A DNA stretch of 34,195 nucleotides, from the IMG/VR virus record IMGVR_UViG_2579778804_000007, positions 1 through 34,195 of that record; one strand, 5' to 3'. The translations under genes and the position numbers were made by a program. The notes under the pieces were generated by a model, which made no database searches, was not told where the DNA came from, and saw only the letters and a program-made list of their open reading frames with translations. Position 1 is the stretch's first letter. Every line of letters begins with the position of its first letter. This document shows positions 7,867-33,133 of the stretch, one piece after another. Source of the DNA: a virus. Its lineage: Duplodnaviria; Heunggongvirae; Uroviricota; Caudoviricetes.

Positions 7867-9028
7867 TCAGGGATTCGAGCCGTGGCACGGCCAGATCGCT
7901 GATGATGTCCTCCAGTGAAAACTGAACCGATGCCACCACCGGGAAGGTCTGATGAATTTCCTTGCCCAGCGTGGAAAACGAAAAGCGCGAATAGGGCCAG
8001 ACTTTTTTCACATTAAAGCGGGCGTTCTCCCGAAAAGCGCAGCGTATCAGGTCGCTGATATCCTGTTTCAGCCCGTCCACGCCGTCAGGTGGCAGGGTGG
8101 TTGTGCTTCTGACGTACACGGTGACGTCCAGAGTGTGGCTCGTCTCCGGCATGGCAAAACACTGTAAATCATCCCCGTGTCCGTGATGGCCCTCCTCGCT
8201 GATGTAACGGTTTACGGCCTCAATGAAAGGGGCGGATGCCTCGCCGCTGTCCAGCAAGAGGTAGGCGTTGGCTGTTCCCGGTCCTCTCGGAGCGTCGTGT
8301 TTAAAGTAGATCCGGTCGATGCTCAGGCCTGCCACGCTGGCGATAAGTCCCCGGTAGACGGCGTCCGTGTGGTAACTGCTCACGAGGTTAAACTGGTTGC
8401 GTATTCTGTCGCGCAGTTCGTCGTCGCTTTCCTCATCGGCACCCGGTACGGTCAGCCAGTCTTCCCGGTTCACCACGGATGCAATGCCGGGAATGGCAAC
8501 GGGAAGGATACGGAAGTACCCCGGCGCGAGGTTGTGCCCGCTGCCTTCGGTGGTGGCTTCCACGGGAACGGATGCGCCGCTTTTACCGCTGCTGATAAGC
8601 GTTTCTTCCGTGACGGTCATGCTGTATATCACGCCGTTAATTCTGGAGGTCTGGACGATGGTGCCTTCGGGGATGAGGACGTCATCATTTGCCCTGGTTT
8701 TGGCAAACCAGATCACGCCACTGGCCTTACTGGCCGGTTTTGGGGTGATGTTGACGTCGTGCGCATGAAGCAGAAGAAGTGACCGGTCAGCCGTGGCGAC
8801 AAACATACCGGGCAGCACAACGTCAACCAGCGCATCACGCAGCCACTGAACGGGTCGTATGACAATGGTCAGAATGAGCCGCCAGAAGGGACTCATGGGC
8901 GAGGTGTTGGTGATGAGTCCGGTTTTCTGTACATCCTCATGAAAGAGGGTGGCGATCTCTTCTTCTGTTTCCGGCATACCGCTTTCACGGAATACCTGAT
9001 TAAAATCAACGTCCGGTTTCCCTTTCAT
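7844..9028 (-). CDS. Baseplate J-like protein (P2 gpJ / Mu gp47 family)
   Basis: 394 aa; size and position typical of baseplate wedge J proteins. Confidence 0.7.
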   Translation of the reverse strand: MKGKPDVDFNQVFRESGMPETEEEIATLFHEDVQKTGLITNTSPMSPFWRLILTIVIRPVQWLRDALVDVVLPGMFVATADRSLLLLHAHDVNITPKPASKASGVIWFAKTRANDDVLIPEGTIVQTSRINGVIYSMTVTEETLISSGKSGASVPVEATTEGSGHNLAPGYFRILPVAIPGIASVVNREDWLTVPGADEESDDELRDRIRNQFNLVSSYHTDAVYRGLIASVAGLSIDRIYFKHDAPRGPGTANAYLLLDSGEASAPFIEAVNRYISEEGHHGHGDDLQCFAMPETSHTLDVTVYVRSTTTLPPDGVDGLKQDISDLIRCAFRENARFNVKKVWPYSRFSFSTLGKEIHQTFPVVASVQFSLEDIISDLAVPRLESLSVEVVIE

Positions 9029-23214: not shown

Positions 23215-23619
23215 TTACCTGCGTGATTGCCTGTTGGCGGCCGAATGCACATAGCGGGCAATTGCCGCTTTTCGGTTAATCGATGCCAGTGTTCTGGTGA
23301 GTTCTGCGTTGTGTTTGTGTGCCTGCTCTTCGTGGTACTGCCGCATGATTTTTCCGGCAGGCGTGAGCGGCTCCGGCTCCCCGGGCGGACGGCGCGGACG
23401 AACGGCGACAAGCCAACTGCGGTTAGTGCTGTCCGGTCGTCCGTTGAGTATGTCGGTGATGATGGCCGTGGTGGTGCGATCGGGACTGACGACCGTGATT
23501 TCCAGCTCATCGCCAGGTTGTGGCCCCGTGGCAATGTTGTTCAGGGTCAGTAAGGGCGTGCGCTGGCGCATCAGTTCGTCAAAACGCTGTCGCTGCATGG
23601 CGCAATAAAAGCGGGTCAT
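23215..23619 (-). CDS. Hypothetical protein, 134 aa, immediately after gpA
   Basis: Start overlaps the gpA stop (coupled translation); no family recognised. Confidence 0.45.
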   Translation of the reverse strand: MTRFYCAMQRQRFDELMRQRTPLLTLNNIATGPQPGDELEITVVSPDRTTTAIITDILNGRPDSTNRSWLVAVRPRRPPGEPEPLTPAGKIMRQYHEEQAHKHNAELTRTLASINRKAAIARYVHSAANRQSRR

Positions 23620-26135
23620 TGTGGCGCCTCCGTATTCGGTGCGGGGGTGATATCAATGCGGCGGGTGCTGTCATTCCAGTACGCGGTGCGTCCGTCAGCC
23701 AGGCGCACGCGGGCACCGTGACGGACGGAAACGACGGCGCTTTCATGCAGCTGCACGCCCAGCGCATCAAGCTCACGGGTGATTTGTGCGGTGATGTGTG
23801 GCTCAGCGGTCAGAGCGATACTCACGCGAACGCCGCCAGCGGGCGCACTGATGCCGCCGTTTTTCACGGTTTCCGTGTCAGGTGGTGGGTTTTTCAGCTG
23901 CCTGGTGAGTTGTTTTCGCTCTGTGGGGGTCAGTGACCTTAACCATTCACCCAAATCACCTTCCGGCAGGGTAAGTCGCTGCTCCCTGCGTCCGTCCGGC
24001 TGCCTTTCTGGCGGGTCGTTTATGGTCAGATTCTGGTCAGGGGGACAGTTATTGCCACGAGTCCAAGGTGCGGCAAAGCCGCACTCAACGTCAAAACCCT
24101 CGTCCGTGCGGTCTTCGTTTTCCGGCTTACGTCTGACCAGTTTCCAGGTGTCCGGGTGGGTGCATATGGTGTAGCGCTCCCCGAGTGACGGGGCGCGGAC
24201 GCCGTAAATGCGTTGCGGGAATTCGCCGTAGTCGTTGGCCTCTTCGGCAGTTTCGTATGCGGTGCGGACCAGGTACGTGTTGCGGGGAATGAGCACACCA
24301 CCCTGGCGGGTGATATAGGTGGCAAAACATCCCACGTCGGCGGCGGCCAGTATGGCGTCAATGTCGTCATGGTCCAGACGCTGCGGGGCTGCCGGGTTAC
24401 GGGCCATCTGCCCGGCAAGGCGGCGGAGTTCGCGCCATACCTGGCGGGGCGGGATGCCGAAGAACTGGAACTGGTGGATGCGGTGAAGGCCTGCCCAGCC
24501 GATTGCGTTCTCCACGGTTTCGGCCATGGTTTTGCCTGATTCCTTATCGACGTAAGGTTTGCCGGTTTTCGGGTCATTCCCCATGAAGGCGCTGGCGTCC
24601 AGGTTCTTACCGATATAGGTCGCGATATAGCTTGTCGGTGTGCCTTTTGCCGGGTCGATTTTTTCGCATTTAAAACGCGGGGAGATATCATCACCCAGCT
24701 CTGCGCGGTCCTCCCTGATGGCGGCGTTGCGCATGATTTCAGTGATACGGGCTTCGTTTTCCGGGCTGGTGAATACCAGCATGTGCCAGTGCGGTGTACC
24801 GTCGTGGTGGGGCTCTACTGTGCGCACGCCGTACCAGCCCAGCCCGGCCTTGTTGATGGCCTTGCGGACGGCGGCGAAAAAGCGGTAAACCAGATAATCA
24901 CTGGCATCACGTACCGTTGCCCCGCAGTATTTCGGGTTCAGACTGCCGTCATCGTTCACGCTGTGAAAACGGGAAGGGGCTGTGACGGTGACGAAAAACG
25001 CCACGTCGCCGCGTGCTTCGGCGACCTGCTCCATTCCCCGGACGCAGGCCATCATCTCGTTACGGCGGTTACGCGGATTAGAGAGACCTGCCCAGTAGAT
25101 ATCCTCAAGGCTGAACCGTTCTCCCTCTTCGTTCTCGATGTCCCAGGCCTTCAGAAAATCGCGGGTGCGCTGGCGTTTTTCGCGCCAGTCCAGTAACGCT
25201 TCATGGCTGATATATACCGACGTCTTACGTGACACCAGGCCTGCGGCGCGTAACAGCTCTTCACGCCAGATGTCCCGGAGGTGTCTTAACTGACTGTTCC
25301 ACCATGTCGCACAGGAAAGGCGCATGACCGCACCCGGCACCTGTTCCGGGTCGGGGGCGGTGCGGCGGTCGGGCCTGATTTCCAGCGACGGCCAGCAGGG
25401 TGGCGTGATACCCAGTTTTAACGCCATGTGTGCCAGTGGCTGGTAGGTCAGTAACCAGGTGAACAGGTCATCGTCACCCCTGCCGGTCTTTTCGATGACC
25501 TCATCACATGCGCGCTCCAGTGCGGTGGAAAACGCGGTGGCGGTCAGGGTGGCAAGGCGCTGGATTTCGTCACGGCTCAGCTGCGGCAGCATAAGCAGTT
25601 CATCCAGCCGTTCGCGCGCGGCGGTGGCCTTAAAGGCCGGGGTGGCAAAGCGATCATTTACACGGGCGATACGTTTCAGGCGGGCACGCAGCCCGTGACG
25701 AACGAAGTTATCCGCCGCGTATGCGCTGTTGTTCTTAAGCCCTTCCCGGCGTGCGCTCTCCTGTTTGCGGCTCAGGCGTGCCAGGTCACGGATGAGCGGA
25801 CCGGCAAGAAACGGCGGCAGGGCGCGCAGCTCTGCCATGGCTTCAGATACCAGTGTGGGCGGATTCTCGTGTTTGTGCCGCGCCAGTTTTTCCAGTCTGA
25901 TCCGACGCTCTTCGTCGTGGTGAAGATGCGAATTAATTCGCTTGCCTTCGTCTGTGTTTGTCTGGAAGTCGACGGTCTCTTCATCCAGTCTTGCATCAAT
26001 GCGAATGTCTTCGTTGATGTAGCTCTGAATGGCCTGGCGCAATGCAGTTGGTTGCGCTCTGCCGAATGTTTCAGGATCGATAACCGGTAGCGGGGCGTTC
26101 CACGGGTACGCCAGTTGTGCATTATGGTCGCTCAT
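23616..26135 (-). CDS. A: Replication initiation endonuclease (P2 gpA family, rolling-circle HUH nuclease)
   Basis: About 840 aa; HUH motif in HHDGTPHWHMLVF; ATG at 26135 with GGGGAG ribosome-binding site (track starts at GTG 26144). Confidence 0.85.
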   Translation of the reverse strand: MSDHNAQLAYPWNAPLPVIDPETFGRAQPTALRQAIQSYINEDIRIDARLDEETVDFQTNTDEGKRINSHLHHDEERRIRLEKLARHKHENPPTLVSEAMAELRALPPFLAGPLIRDLARLSRKQESARREGLKNNSAYAADNFVRHGLRARLKRIARVNDRFATPAFKATAARERLDELLMLPQLSRDEIQRLATLTATAFSTALERACDEVIEKTGRGDDDLFTWLLTYQPLAHMALKLGITPPCWPSLEIRPDRRTAPDPEQVPGAVMRLSCATWWNSQLRHLRDIWREELLRAAGLVSRKTSVYISHEALLDWREKRQRTRDFLKAWDIENEEGERFSLEDIYWAGLSNPRNRRNEMMACVRGMEQVAEARGDVAFFVTVTAPSRFHSVNDDGSLNPKYCGATVRDASDYLVYRFFAAVRKAINKAGLGWYGVRTVEPHHDGTPHWHMLVFTSPENEARITEIMRNAAIREDRAELGDDISPRFKCEKIDPAKGTPTSYIATYIGKNLDASAFMGNDPKTGKPYVDKESGKTMAETVENAIGWAGLHRIHQFQFFGIPPRQVWRELRRLAGQMARNPAAPQRLDHDDIDAILAAADVGCFATYITRQGGVLIPRNTYLVRTAYETAEEANDYGEFPQRIYGVRAPSLGERYTICTHPDTWKLVRRKPENEDRTDEGFDVECGFAAPWTRGNNCPPDQNLTINDPPERQPDGRREQRLTLPEGDLGEWLRSLTPTERKQLTRQLKNPPPDTETVKNGGISAPAGGVRVSIALTAEPHITAQITRELDALGVQLHESAVVSVRHGARVRLADGRTAYWNDSTRRIDITPAPNTEAPQ

Positions 26136-26542
26136 GCGTCGCACTCCCCGGCAGTTGCCGCCTGAAACGCCGCGCGGTACAGCACGAGAAGGCGCTGGTA
26201 TTCACCGATAAAGTCTTCTGCGGTGTATATACCTTTCACGGCCACGCTGTGGTTTGTCATTTCCAGCACAAGCGTCATCTCTGACGACGACCAGCTGATG
26301 GCGGTGCTGTCGGTTCCGTTGATGTGAAATAAACCAAAACCATCACCTTTCACGTCCACGCGGTAACGGTCGTCAACGGTGAAGGAGAAATCCCCGTATG
26401 TGGTGACGCGTCTGGCGGCCTGTTTACAGGCGCGGCGGTAATAGTCGTGCCAGTCGTTGAGGCGGGAAGCCAGCCGGGGCTCCACTGCCCACATCCAGTT
26501 AAAAAAATCCTGAATATCTGAAAGTCCCTTAACGTTCTTCAT
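26132..26542 (-). CDS. Hypothetical early protein, 136 aa
   Basis: Overlaps gpA start by a few nt (operon coupling); no family recognised. Confidence 0.5.
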   Translation of the reverse strand: MKNVKGLSDIQDFFNWMWAVEPRLASRLNDWHDYYRRACKQAARRVTTYGDFSFTVDDRYRVDVKGDGFGLFHINGTDSTAISWSSSEMTLVLEMTNHSVAVKGIYTAEDFIGEYQRLLVLYRAAFQAATAGECDA

Positions 26543-26610
26543 GAGAACCTCCGGTAACAGACGTGCGGAAGCCTCCCGCGCACGGGTGCGGGATGGCTTC
26601 AGGATGTTGT

Positions 26611-26838
26611 TTAGTGGTGGTGTTGCTGGTTGATGAGGCTTTGCAGTTCTGCCATATCTTCGGCGAGATAGCTGAAGACAGCAGCGCAGTAACGGTTTGA
26701 TAGCGCGTGCGTGCGCTCATGCAGCATGTTGATATGCATGATTTGCGCGACGCGTGATGCGCGCCAGAGTCTGCGGTTGATTTCGGTGCGGATGTGAAGA
26801 CGCTCAGCGCGGGCGCGCTGTTGCTTGCGGTTTGCCAT
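26611..26838 (-). CDS. Small basic hypothetical protein, 75 aa
   Basis: Helical-looking basic protein; GAGG upstream of ATG. Confidence 0.45.
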   Translation of the reverse strand: MANRKQQRARAERLHIRTEINRRLWRASRVAQIMHINMLHERTHALSNRYCAAVFSYLAEDMAELQSLINQQHHH

Positions 26839-26877
26839 GACGTGGCCTCGTGTATAGTAAGTTTTGAAAACTCACCA

Positions 26878-27073
26878 TCCAGAGTTGAGAATCTCGGGGT
26901 GGCGAGACGTACGGGGTTCTCAACACCGGCTACACACGATCCCGGCCCGACCGAAGTCGGCCCCGTACGCCCCGCCATAATTCTGACGCGAAAAAGACGT
27001 GGCAATACAGTACGCACAAAAAAACCGCTGGCGCGGTTGTGCGCGTGTGTAGTCAGCGGGTTGAGAATCCCGG
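26878..27073. promoter_or_regulatory. Intergenic regulatory region: GTTGAGAATC direct repeats (about 26881 and 27060) with an inverted copy (about 26915), inverted repeat CGTACGGGG / CCCCGTACG, and a minus-strand terminator hairpin AACCGC-tgg-cGCGGTT followed by a T-run (about 27015-27045)
   Basis: Repeats and hairpin seen directly in a roughly 380-bp non-coding gap. Confidence 0.4.
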
Positions 27074-27132
27074 CACCCGTTTTATGAGGTGCAGCGGAAA
27101 TGTAACCTGACTCAACGAGCGCTGGCAAGCGG

Positions 27133-27163
27133 TTTTTGTGTTGCGTGCTGAAGTATGTATAAT
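27133..27163 (+). promoter_or_regulatory. Sigma70-like promoter (TTGTGT-N16-TATAAT) for the + strand membrane-protein gene
   Basis: Consensus -10 TATAAT at 27158-27163 with a -35-like hexamer at the right spacing, about 60 bp before the start codon. Confidence 0.45.
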
Positions 27164-27224
27164 CGCGGCGCAAAAATGGAATGCGCCGAAGGATAGCGGC
27201 GTTTATTAACAATGGAGGTTGTTT

Positions 27225-27692
27225 ATGCCTGTTGCTATGGAGCAAGCAGACAAGAAGATTTTTTTCCATCTGTGGTACAGCTACTGGCTGGAAGAGATGG
27301 TTTTCATACTCAGCAATAAAGCCGCTGCCGTGTTGCGCGCCGGGGCACTGATTGCTGCGGTATTCTCCTTTCTTCTCGTAGGTTTCCCCGTCCTGATGAG
27401 TCTTTGCGGGCTGGCGTTTTTTGTTTTTTCCTGGTTTTGCAGTAAGTTTGAGTGCGTCGCCGAATGGGCGTGCTGGCAGAAACAGAGCTACCTTCGTCTG
27501 ATTACGCAAAGGGATTTCATGAGCACTGAACGCCTCATTGAGCGCATTCTGTACCTGGAGGAAACGAACAGCGCATTCATGAAGGCGTTTGTCAGGCCCG
27601 CAAAAAACAAAGCGAGCGCATCTGTTGGTCTGTCTGCCAGCGAGCATTTGCGTTACTCCGAAAGGTTAATCTGCTGGTTGTGCGGCTTCTGA
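27225..27692 (+). CDS. Membrane protein of unknown function, 155 aa, transcribed opposite to the flanking phage genes (moron)
   Basis: GGAGG 6 nt before ATG 27225 (track ORF starts at TTG 27219); two or three hydrophobic helices and an amphipathic C-terminal region; own promoter. Confidence 0.55.
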   Translation: MPVAMEQADKKIFFHLWYSYWLEEMVFILSNKAAAVLRAGALIAAVFSFLLVGFPVLMSLCGLAFFVFSWFCSKFECVAEWACWQKQSYLRLITQRDFMSTERLIERILYLEETNSAFMKAFVRPAKNKASASVGLSASEHLRYSERLICWLCGF

Positions 27693-32684: not shown

Positions 32685-32785
32685 TTGTTATCCTCTCGCA
32701 CAGGTGCGCCTATTGCACCTTATGAAGGTTTGTTTTGGTTTGTTTAATGTCGAAATTACGACACTTTTGCGAGGATTTTAGTGGT
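32685..32785. promoter_or_regulatory. Immunity switch region: divergent early and repressor promoters with inverted repeat GGTGC-gcctatt-GCACC (candidate operator)
   Basis: Intergenic between divergent Cox-like and repressor genes; palindrome seen directly; promoter hexamers not confidently assigned. Confidence 0.4.
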
Positions 32786-33133
32786 ATGAATTCGACACTG
32801 TCAATAAGTATCGGTGAAAAAATCTTGATGATCCGGAAAAGTGAGAGGCTTACAAGGAAGCAATTCTTTGAGCTTACAGGGATTCCTGTTAATACGCAGA
32901 GGTATTACGAAACGGGAAGGCAAGATGGAATCGGAAGTGAGATCTTATTAAAGATCACAAAAAATTTACGTTTTAAAAAATATGCACTTTGGTTAACAAC
33001 TGATGAAACGTTTGAAGCTGGAGGTCAAATTGCCCCGGCTCTCTCTCTTGATGGATCTTCTCAGTCGGAGGGCGATCTGGCTTCAATCGACGTTACCCAA
33101 AAATCATCCCGATCAGGCCGCAATGCTGGCTGA
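32786..33133 (+). CDS. CI-type immunity repressor (XRE-family helix-turn-helix)
   Basis: HTH IRKSERLTRKQFFELTGIPVNTQRYYETGR; start at ATG 32786 (track ORF from 32735); immediately upstream of the integrase, as P2 C-int. Confidence 0.7.
   Translation: MNSTLSISIGEKILMIRKSERLTRKQFFELTGIPVNTQRYYETGRQDGIGSEILLKITKNLRFKKYALWLTTDETFEAGGQIAPALSLDGSSQSEGDLASIDVTQKSSRSGRNAG

Follow-up and report, generated by a model that had tools for sequence, protein, structure and literature searches.

A P88-like prophage of the P2 family with a probable RNA immunity module of the P4 type in its early operon

What is the function of a 380-bp gap that carries several repeats and separates two divergent phage genes? 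The window analysed here, a stretch of 34,195 nt from a virus of the Caudoviricetes (IMG/VR record IMGVR_UViG_2579778804_000007), belongs to the P88 type of P2-family prophages (genus Xuanwuvirus). This assignment is supported by an integrase, an early operon on the minus strand, a GPA-family initiator and, at the right end, a Cox-like gene and a C-like repressor (32735..33133). The region in question, 26839-27224, is bounded by the ATG of a minus-strand open reading frame (ORF) of 75 amino acids (aa; ATG at 26838) and the ATG of a plus-strand ORF of 155 aa (27225), in the following termed cargo gene. A preliminary description had proposed either an operator array, controlling the cargo gene (a moron) or the downstream replication genes, or a small RNA gene. 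The latter option is borne out by two minus-strand RNA genes, both above the Rfam gathering scores. We are confident that the region is an RNA immunity module of the P4 type within the early minus-strand operon. It holds members of two RNA families with conserved structure, three sets of complementary and covarying boxes, a conserved promoter and a conserved reading frame, and it is homologous to the immunity region and to epsilon of phage P4. This kind of system and its mechanism are already known, and the term 'IsrK-C4 immunity system' is in use (PMC3632133). What is new is limited to the phage lineage that hosts it, the way in which the genes are arranged and how much the boxes vary.

An Rfam search of the whole window, one of the checks named in the preliminary description, yields C4 and isrK as the sole matches above the gathering thresholds. 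Both lie inside the region, on the minus strand and in full length. The antisense RNA of the C4/P4-CI type (RF01695; 26895..26982) scores 76.8 bits against a gathering score of 45 (E 1.5e-13, model positions 1-87 of 87). The leader small RNA (sRNA) of the IsrK/P4-seqA type (RF01394; 27018..27092) reaches 61.8 bits against 50 (E 4.4e-11, model positions 1-77 of 77). The previously described repeats map onto these RNAs and the leader behind them. Two direct copies of GTTGAGAATC are exact (26884-26893 and 27060-27069, plus strand), and the inverted copy matches at 9 of 10 positions (26915-26924). The inverted repeat CGTACGGGG / CCCCGTACG, reported as about 45 bp apart, is the core of two 17-nt arms (26900-26916 and 26961-26977, 44 nt apart) and represents the outer stem of C4. 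The minus-strand intrinsic terminator (27038..27023, then seven U) is likewise present and forms the 3' end of the IsrK-like RNA. A second repeat set is absent from the preliminary description: CTAYACACG is found at 26849-57 (minus strand), 26930-38 (plus strand) and 27044-52 (minus strand). All three occurrences in the 34-kb window fall within the region, and three matches were seen in 0 of 100 shuffles. The count of the GTTGAGAATC 10-mer is weakly unusual on its own, with 4 matches at no more than one mismatch equalled by 7 of 100 shuffles. The repeats are non-random because of the two Rfam E-values and because of the covariation of the boxes across homologous loci.

Two data sets underlie the comparisons below: 120 loci returned by a scan of IMG/VR with a degenerate C4 pattern, and a nearly gap-free alignment of 24 distinct P88-like (P2-like) sequences. 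All features of the module are on the minus strand. A promoter scan predicts a sigma-70 promoter, P_isrK, the counterpart of P4 PLE, at 27099..27128. It consists of TTGCCA (27128..27123), an 18-nt spacer and TACATT (27104..27099), and hexamers and spacing are identical in 24 of 24 P88-like loci. The predicted transcription start, G27092, is position 1 of the Rfam isrK model. The IsrK-like RNA starts with hairpin 1 (27092-87/27078-73), where four sequences show a compensatory change from AU to CG. Hairpin 2 (27072-69/27060-57) exposes box b1 (GAUUCUCAAC, 27069..27060) in its loop. Box a1 (CUACACACG, 27052..27044) resides in the linker ahead of the terminator (27038..27023, U7 at 27024..27018), which was detected by a terminator scan independent of the Rfam match. 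P_isrK lies at the distance expected for a promoter of this RNA, and its transcripts may in part read past the terminator into the operon. A second promoter upstream of C4, TTGCCA-17-AATTAT (27005..26977), was considered as main source of C4 and rejected: its -35 box is not conserved (TCGCCA, TCGTCA), and in distant loci deletions of 6-9 nt alter the spacing. A P1-type upstream target was rejected, too. The Rfam model c4-a1b1 (RF03163) reaches only 15.9 bits compared to a gathering score of 46.7, and the upstream element is of the isrK type.

The C4-like RNA is composed of a 17-bp outer stem around two hairpins. Folded by minimum energy (-49.1 kcal/mol, z -3.3), it adopts exactly the structure of the Rfam consensus. 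Across the 24 loci the 17 pairs of the outer stem are 100% paired, with one double and six single-side changes. Hairpin 1 has double changes in four of five pairs, and 100% of the alignment cells are paired. Box a' (CGUGUGUAG, 26938..26930) occupies the 12-nt loop of hairpin 2, and box b' (GUUGAGAA, 26924..26917) the single-stranded junction. The CCA-containing 3' tail (GCCACCC) is conserved in sequence. RNAs of the C4 family are trans-acting immunity repressors whose 5' end is freed from a precursor by RNase P. Downstream of C4, a conserved GGAUGGUGAG (26871-26880) is complementary to the C4 3' strand and tail (CUCGCCACCC), and P4 (locus L124, about 8395-8405) carries a compensated version of this pair, GGCGAUAGC / GCUAUCGCC. 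Cognate runs of at least 8 nt between the C4 3' strand and the GGAUGGUGAG-type element are found in 55% of the loci, compared to 32% of non-cognate combinations. In the precursor RNA, this pairing may offer another helix in competition with the fold of C4.

The third set of boxes is located in the mRNA leader behind C4. Box b2 (26884..26893) has the same sequence as b1, GAUUCUCAAC, and lies two bases past the C4 3' end, upstream of the GGAUGGUGAG element. Box a2 (CUAUACACGA, 26857..26848) was read from the sequence. It overlaps the Shine-Dalgarno sequence GAGG (26849..26846) of the 75-aa ORF, whose ATG follows 7 nt beyond. This ORF resembles P4 epsilon and is termed epsilon-like below. Compared to a1 (CUACACACG), a2 (CUAUACACG) shows a C-to-U change, and pairing with a' is kept via a G-U pair. 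Of 113 C4 loci, 79 have an IsrK-like element ahead of C4 at a distance of 56-98 nt, and the window has a spacing within this range.

Do these boxes pair? The most informative answer comes from covariation. In the alignment, promoter hexamers, hairpin stems and terminator are invariant, and the boxes vary between phages in concert. Helix a1:a' shows double-sided changes in 7 of 9 pairs with 100% of the cells paired, helix b1:b' in 4 of 7 pairs (99.4%), helix a':a2 in 7 of 10 pairs (96.7%) and helix b':b2 in 4 of 8 pairs (92%). Control registers shifted by 1-3 columns are only 39-50% paired, and the observed covariation score was reached by 0 of 500 shuffles. A similar picture emerges from 107 distinct C4 loci: for the cognate a', a Watson-Crick complement of at least 8 nt was found upstream in 65% and downstream in 71%, compared to 1-3% for non-cognate combinations. 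Duplex energies of single sequences are only marginally better than those of shuffled ones, with no gain whatsoever for b':b2, and covariation was relied on instead. The P88-like loci of the IMG/VR sample comprise 13 a-boxes and 7 b-boxes in 17 (a,b) combinations. Such covarying boxes are predicted by RNA-RNA recognition with diversifying specificity and argue for it, whereas protein coding gives no account of the pattern. The preliminary description had named structure and covariance analysis in homologous prophages as a check and conservation of the repeats as its touchstone. The C4 fold agrees with the Rfam consensus and the box helices covary; the box sequences as such differ between phages yet change together, and the RNA reading is left standing. 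One locus (L010) deviates: its b1, UUCUCAC, is mismatched to its own b' and b2, GUGGAAA and UUUCCAC (alignment columns 64-71 versus 209-215 and 241-248). It looks like a recombinant whose decoy and target have different specificities. In some viral contigs, two C4 genes are found about 1.3-7.6 kb apart (L013, 221-308 and 7845-7932; L016, two pattern matches).

The same data bear on the operator array. In this scenario, the boxes, two direct and one inverted per type, would be DNA operators bound by a phage repressor that governs two divergent promoters, one for the cargo gene and one for the replication operon. Repeated boxes of 9-10 bp close to two back-to-back candidate promoters might be expected for such an array, and box covariation among phages could also result from swaps of operator/repressor specificity. 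However, no box overlaps either promoter; the nearest one is 30 nt downstream of a -10 element. The differences between copies break sequence identity and maintain RNA pairing by G-U wobble (a1 versus a2; UG and GU cells). DNA operators are a poor fit because the copies differ by such wobble-compatible changes and sit outside the promoters. Moreover, the positions of the 'inverted' copies coincide exactly with the loop and junction that C4, a high-scoring structured RNA, exposes, and the 13 a-box and 7 b-box variants recombine freely in a module without a linked variable gene for a DNA-binding protein. We consider operators extremely improbable. The repeats are instead complementary RNA boxes located in a hairpin loop, in the C4 loop and junction and beside a ribosome-binding site. 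Only half of the proposed regulatory role persists along with the RNA reading: The module is transcribed away from the plus-strand moron, which speaks against control of this gene. Control of the downstream replication genes is plausible, with transcription directed toward the epsilon-like ORF, orf136 and gpA.

A conserved coding frame across the region had been regarded as incompatible with an RNA function. Such a frame exists. It is eta/Ash-like, comprises 372 aa (26529..27647, minus strand), spans the promoter, both RNA genes and the leader and then overlaps, in frame +1, with the epsilon-like ORF; the Phage_ASH match covers 27104..26829. The frame is free of stops over promoter, IsrK, C4 and leader in 24 of 24 P88-like loci, and it is open across C4 in 78 of 78 distinct loci of all types, including all 55 non-P88 loci. 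Gaps in the alignment measure 3, 6 or 9 nt or are compensated (+1/-1 in L091, +1/+2 in L069). Where the cargo gene is absent, the frame begins with an ATG about 57 nt ahead of the transcription start, shortly after the preceding gene has ended, and extends for about 205-218 aa, passing through the epsilon-like ORF in frame +1. The P88 frame terminates in an ATGA overlap with the next gene. Given the epsilon protein, the chance of this frame being open is 0.03-0.77 per sequence; it was observed open in 21 of 21 sequences, and the other alternative frame has 1-5 stops.

Could coding be everything, with the region being part of an Ash-family/eta-like gene and the RNA matches a by-product of conserved coding? 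The openness of the frame in all loci, the frame-preserving indels and the matches to Phage_ASH and to PHROG 821/995/6928 would suit this reading. Nonetheless, we regard it as very unlikely. Double compensatory changes that keep base pairs, even between sites 130-180 nt apart, are not predicted by coding constraint, and a conserved promoter and an intrinsic terminator with U7 reside inside the frame. P4 cI was shown genetically to be an RNA, and the old 'cI protein' coding sequence (CDS) is the source of the family annotation (PMC3632133). PGAP calls the frame a truncated pseudogene, labelling the equivalent stretch 'ash family protein' (L131, 2790-3050). The label 'transcriptional regulator/repressor' of the three PHROG families is, in our reading, a legacy of the old P4 annotation, and database annotations over the RNA genes are misleading. 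P4 has the same layout with RNA genes inside eta (PMC10111431). The frame matches this arrangement; thus, coding and RNA function coexist, and the frame supports the P4-type model instead of refuting it.

The P4 immunity region has the order PLE, seqA, CI RNA/seqB and seqC inside eta, followed by kil, epsilon and alpha. P4-type regions also have a downstream Rho-dependent terminator (timm) that is used depending on CI. When P4 (NC_001609) was scanned with Rfam, C4 was found at 8507..8420, which is CI RNA, inside the obsolete 'cI protein' CDS, and isrK at 8692..8615, corresponding to the PLE leader with seqA; epsilon is located further downstream. The two Rfam families are in the same order and orientation as in the window. 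The P4 leader contains the boxes GUGAGAA and UUCACAGG with complements in CI, and a second copy has UUCACAGG on the kil Shine-Dalgarno sequence. This means, both systems have b1-a1 in the leader, a'-b' in the antisense RNA and b2-a2 downstream, with a2 on the first Shine-Dalgarno sequence. They also share a promoter inside a longer Phage_ASH-family frame and an epsilon homologue followed by a replication initiator. The differences are as follows: The window represents a complete P2-like phage of the helper type and not a satellite. With no kil in between, C4 is followed directly by the epsilon-like ORF, which is read in another frame than the Ash-like one. The initiator is a rolling-circle gpA and not the alpha primase-helicase, and the box sequences are unrelated. 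IsrK and C4 are structural homologues of P4 seqA and CI (PMC3632133; PMC4825925). In P4, PLE is internal to eta; its transcripts are untranslated and terminated via CI/seqA, whereas transcripts from the upstream late promoter PLL are translated through eta, and this translation suppresses termination (PMC10111431).

By analogy, the following scheme can be envisaged. The conserved, probably constitutive promoter (27128..27099) would initiate near 27092. Most transcripts would end at the intrinsic terminator and yield an IsrK/seqA-like sRNA of roughly 75 nt with b1 and a1. Read-through transcripts would carry the C4/CI-like RNA (26982..26895), from which it might be excised as stable antisense RNA that exposes a' in its loop and b' in its junction. 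The pairing partners of C4 could then be b2 and a2 in the leader of this operon, either on its own transcript or on that of a superinfecting phage. Pairing at a2 on the Shine-Dalgarno sequence would block translation of the epsilon-like anti-repressor gene. As in P4 and P1, the untranslated RNA would be terminated by Rho, so that the epsilon-like protein, orf136 and gpA would be off in the lysogen. The IsrK-like RNA or leader with the same boxes would compete for C4, either as seqA-like target or decoy (P4) or as activator (Gifsy-1). Transcripts from an upstream early promoter would carry the eta/Ash-like frame through both RNA genes, and ribosomes might prevent pairing and termination. Such translation from upstream could override repression and render lytic transcription insensitive to RNA immunity.

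The activator role leads to a different weighting of the same parts. The Gifsy-1 locus isrK-orf45(STnc1160)-anrP of Salmonella likewise comprises an IsrK sRNA with a leaky terminator, a complementary processed RNA of about 80 nt (STnc1160) downstream of IsrK and an anti-repressor gene (PMC4825925). IsrK and STnc1160 are highly transcribed in lysogens (PMC7067206). If the Gifsy-1-type positive switch dominated here, the read-through RNA would fold in cis, with the isrK boxes on the C4 region, and be translationally inert. The IsrK-like sRNA acting in trans would open it and switch on the epsilon-like anti-repressor, followed by induction. The module would then be a trigger of induction and not an immunity device, although this reading overlaps with the P4-type one. 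In favour of this switch, Rfam assigns the leader to the same isrK family, the b1/a1 region of the 267-nt read-through RNA is paired in cis with a'/b' when folded by minimum energy, and the downstream gene is likewise anti-repressor-like. In Gifsy-1, IsrK provided in trans raises anrP translation about 140-fold (PMC4825925). On the other hand, Gifsy-1 acts via translation of orf45, an upstream ORF coupled by AUGA to anrP, which is not present here. The sole ORF starting in C4 (GTG 26926, 40 aa) was examined as an orf45 counterpart and rejected: it ends 34 nt past the epsilon ATG in another frame and is not coupled to the epsilon start. In addition, a2 is placed directly on the epsilon Shine-Dalgarno sequence as in the repression mode of P4 and P1. 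Gifsy-1 also differs by being a lambdoid prophage with an anti-repressor of another family. Dominance of the positive switch appears possible, albeit rather unlikely. The same isrK and C4 pair was found when a Stx2a phage locus was scanned.

Several points weigh against the P4-type module. Promoter, processing and termination are all inferred for this prophage. The net effect of IsrK in Gifsy-1 is activation, and the leader sRNA may regulate in either direction. The b':b2 duplex is unremarkable at -10.2 kcal/mol, a value matched by 96 of 500 shuffles. Against Pfam PF10554 (Phage_ASH), the Ash-like frame narrowly misses the cutoff of 26 with 23.6-25.7 bits, compared to 59.7 bits for the P4 eta ('cI') ORF. 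The cargo gene is inserted between the early operon and the module, and might keep upstream transcripts and ribosomes from arriving there. Finally, the epsilon-like ORF and the Ash-like ORF are in different frames in every P88-like locus, unlike in P4, where kil is nested in eta, and in the other C4 loci read. The translational logic may differ from that of P4, since the first ORF is out of frame. In the non-P88 C4 loci read (among L003-L122), the C4-spanning frame runs in frame into a longer downstream protein. Based on translations read by eye, this protein might be similar to Rha/Bro-type anti-repressors.

Phages P1 and P7 provide a third point of comparison. Their immI operon (c4-icd-ant, with boxes a1/b1, a'/b' and a2/b2) employs an RNA of the same C4 family, which is processed from the operon it represses, and the target is on the ribosome-binding site of the first gene, upstream of the anti-repressor. 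By contrast, the upstream target is of the isrK type in the window, and the downstream genes are different.

Which genes would be controlled? The first gene translated after C4 is the 75-aa epsilon-like ORF of the 'Derepression' family (26611..26838, minus strand). It matches Pfam PF25738 with 29.5 bits (cutoff 27) and phrog_3688 with E 1.5e-39, and BLASTP aligns it with P4 epsilon, the helper-derepression protein, with 34% identity over 50 aa (E 2e-8). In 28 IMG/VR loci, it is found at an identical distance from C4 and is followed by gpA. Its relatives suggest that the 75-aa protein acts as an anti-repressor. The next gene, orf136 (26132..26542, minus strand), belongs to phrog_3237 with unassigned function. 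The last gene of the unit presumed to be under control of the module is gpA (23616..26144, minus strand), which encodes a P2-type replication initiator of 842 aa (Pfam Phage_GPA, E 6.9e-108). For the cargo gene, the epsilon-like ORF and orf136, neither PADLOC nor NCBIfam yielded a useful match. Between the epsilon-like stop and the orf136 start, inside the Ash-like frame, the minus strand can form a GC-rich hairpin without U tract (26569-26601, -27 kcal/mol, z -2.7) that could be a processing or pause site.

With a 651-bp query, megablast detects similar sequence in 1,181 of 5,426 complete Escherichia coli genomes, and the scaffold pattern is also present in Shigella, E. albertii and Citrobacter. 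The exact a'+b' 34-mer of the window had no match in one genome per species. An IsrK scaffold of the enterobacterial type in a contig of Vagococcus sp. WN89Y (L128, a Firmicutes assembly) is likely due to contamination. Neither the P88 record (NC_026014) nor two inspected E. coli RefSeq records, one of them O103 12009, have an RNA annotation at this place. The two E. coli records are blank at the region or show an 'ash family' pseudogene, and in P88 (L001, 5280-5468, plus strand) a spurious 'hypothetical protein' is annotated over the RNA genes. The papers on P88 and PhiSM do not mention an RNA module.

Thus, a probable function can be assigned to an unannotated 380-bp gap with similar sequence in about 1,180 complete E. 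coli genomes. Xuanwuvirus, usually described by the C/Cox protein switch alone, would gain an RNA layer of immunity and replication control, and a homologue of P4 epsilon would come under RNA control. With 13 a-boxes and 7 b-boxes embedded in a scaffold that otherwise does not vary, the three-way covariation makes a clean natural data set on RNA-RNA specificity, and box variation could serve to type heteroimmunity groups. A broader, quite speculative idea is that P88-type helpers share the RNA immunity and epsilon cassette of P4 either as a source of its immunity and derepression functions or as an arena of cross-talk between helper and satellite, with the 17 combinations as an RNA heteroimmunity code and the frame as a translation-driven override. 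If there were cross-talk, box-matched C4 RNAs could silence the replication of a rival, and the epsilon-like protein could derepress resident P2-like prophages. In the IMG/VR sample, no (a,b) box pair is common to P88-like and other element types; hence, there is no direct sign of helper-satellite cross-immunity.

The conserved module does not extend to the cargo side of the window. Just upstream of ACACAAAAACCGCTTGCCA, the window ceases to be homologous to other P88-like loci. The cargo gene (27225..27692, plus strand; phrog_6315) is present only in the window and in two near-identical loci, and its 155-aa product, as read from the sequence, would have two transmembrane helices. A candidate promoter with structured leader (27136..27224, plus strand) was also read from the sequence: TTGTGT (27136-41), a 16-nt spacer and a perfect TATAAT (27158-63). 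It is back-to-back with the module promoter, outside the conserved module and common only to the two other cargo-bearing loci. The leader fold (-22.7 kcal/mol, z -2.6) comprises two hairpins (27164-27230, plus strand), with the GGAGG ribosome-binding site hidden in the second one. Read as minus strand, this leader resembles a weak terminator (27201..27184). Antisense to the cargo gene, the Ash-like frame crosses it entirely and reaches back to an ATG at 27647, which is preceded by GGAG 8 nt upstream and lies 19 nt past the stop of the preceding early DUF4406 gene. Under different null models, an antisense frame would be open with a probability of 0.02-0.16, given the cargo protein. The frame may have been kept open so that ribosomes of the early operon reach the immunity region; the figures are suggestive and not proof. 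Outside the P88-like loci, an ALIL pseudoknot, the frameshift element of insertion sequences, was found in the Stx2a phage (L123, 1054-1170) about 2 kb from its isrK-C4 pair, to which it is unrelated.

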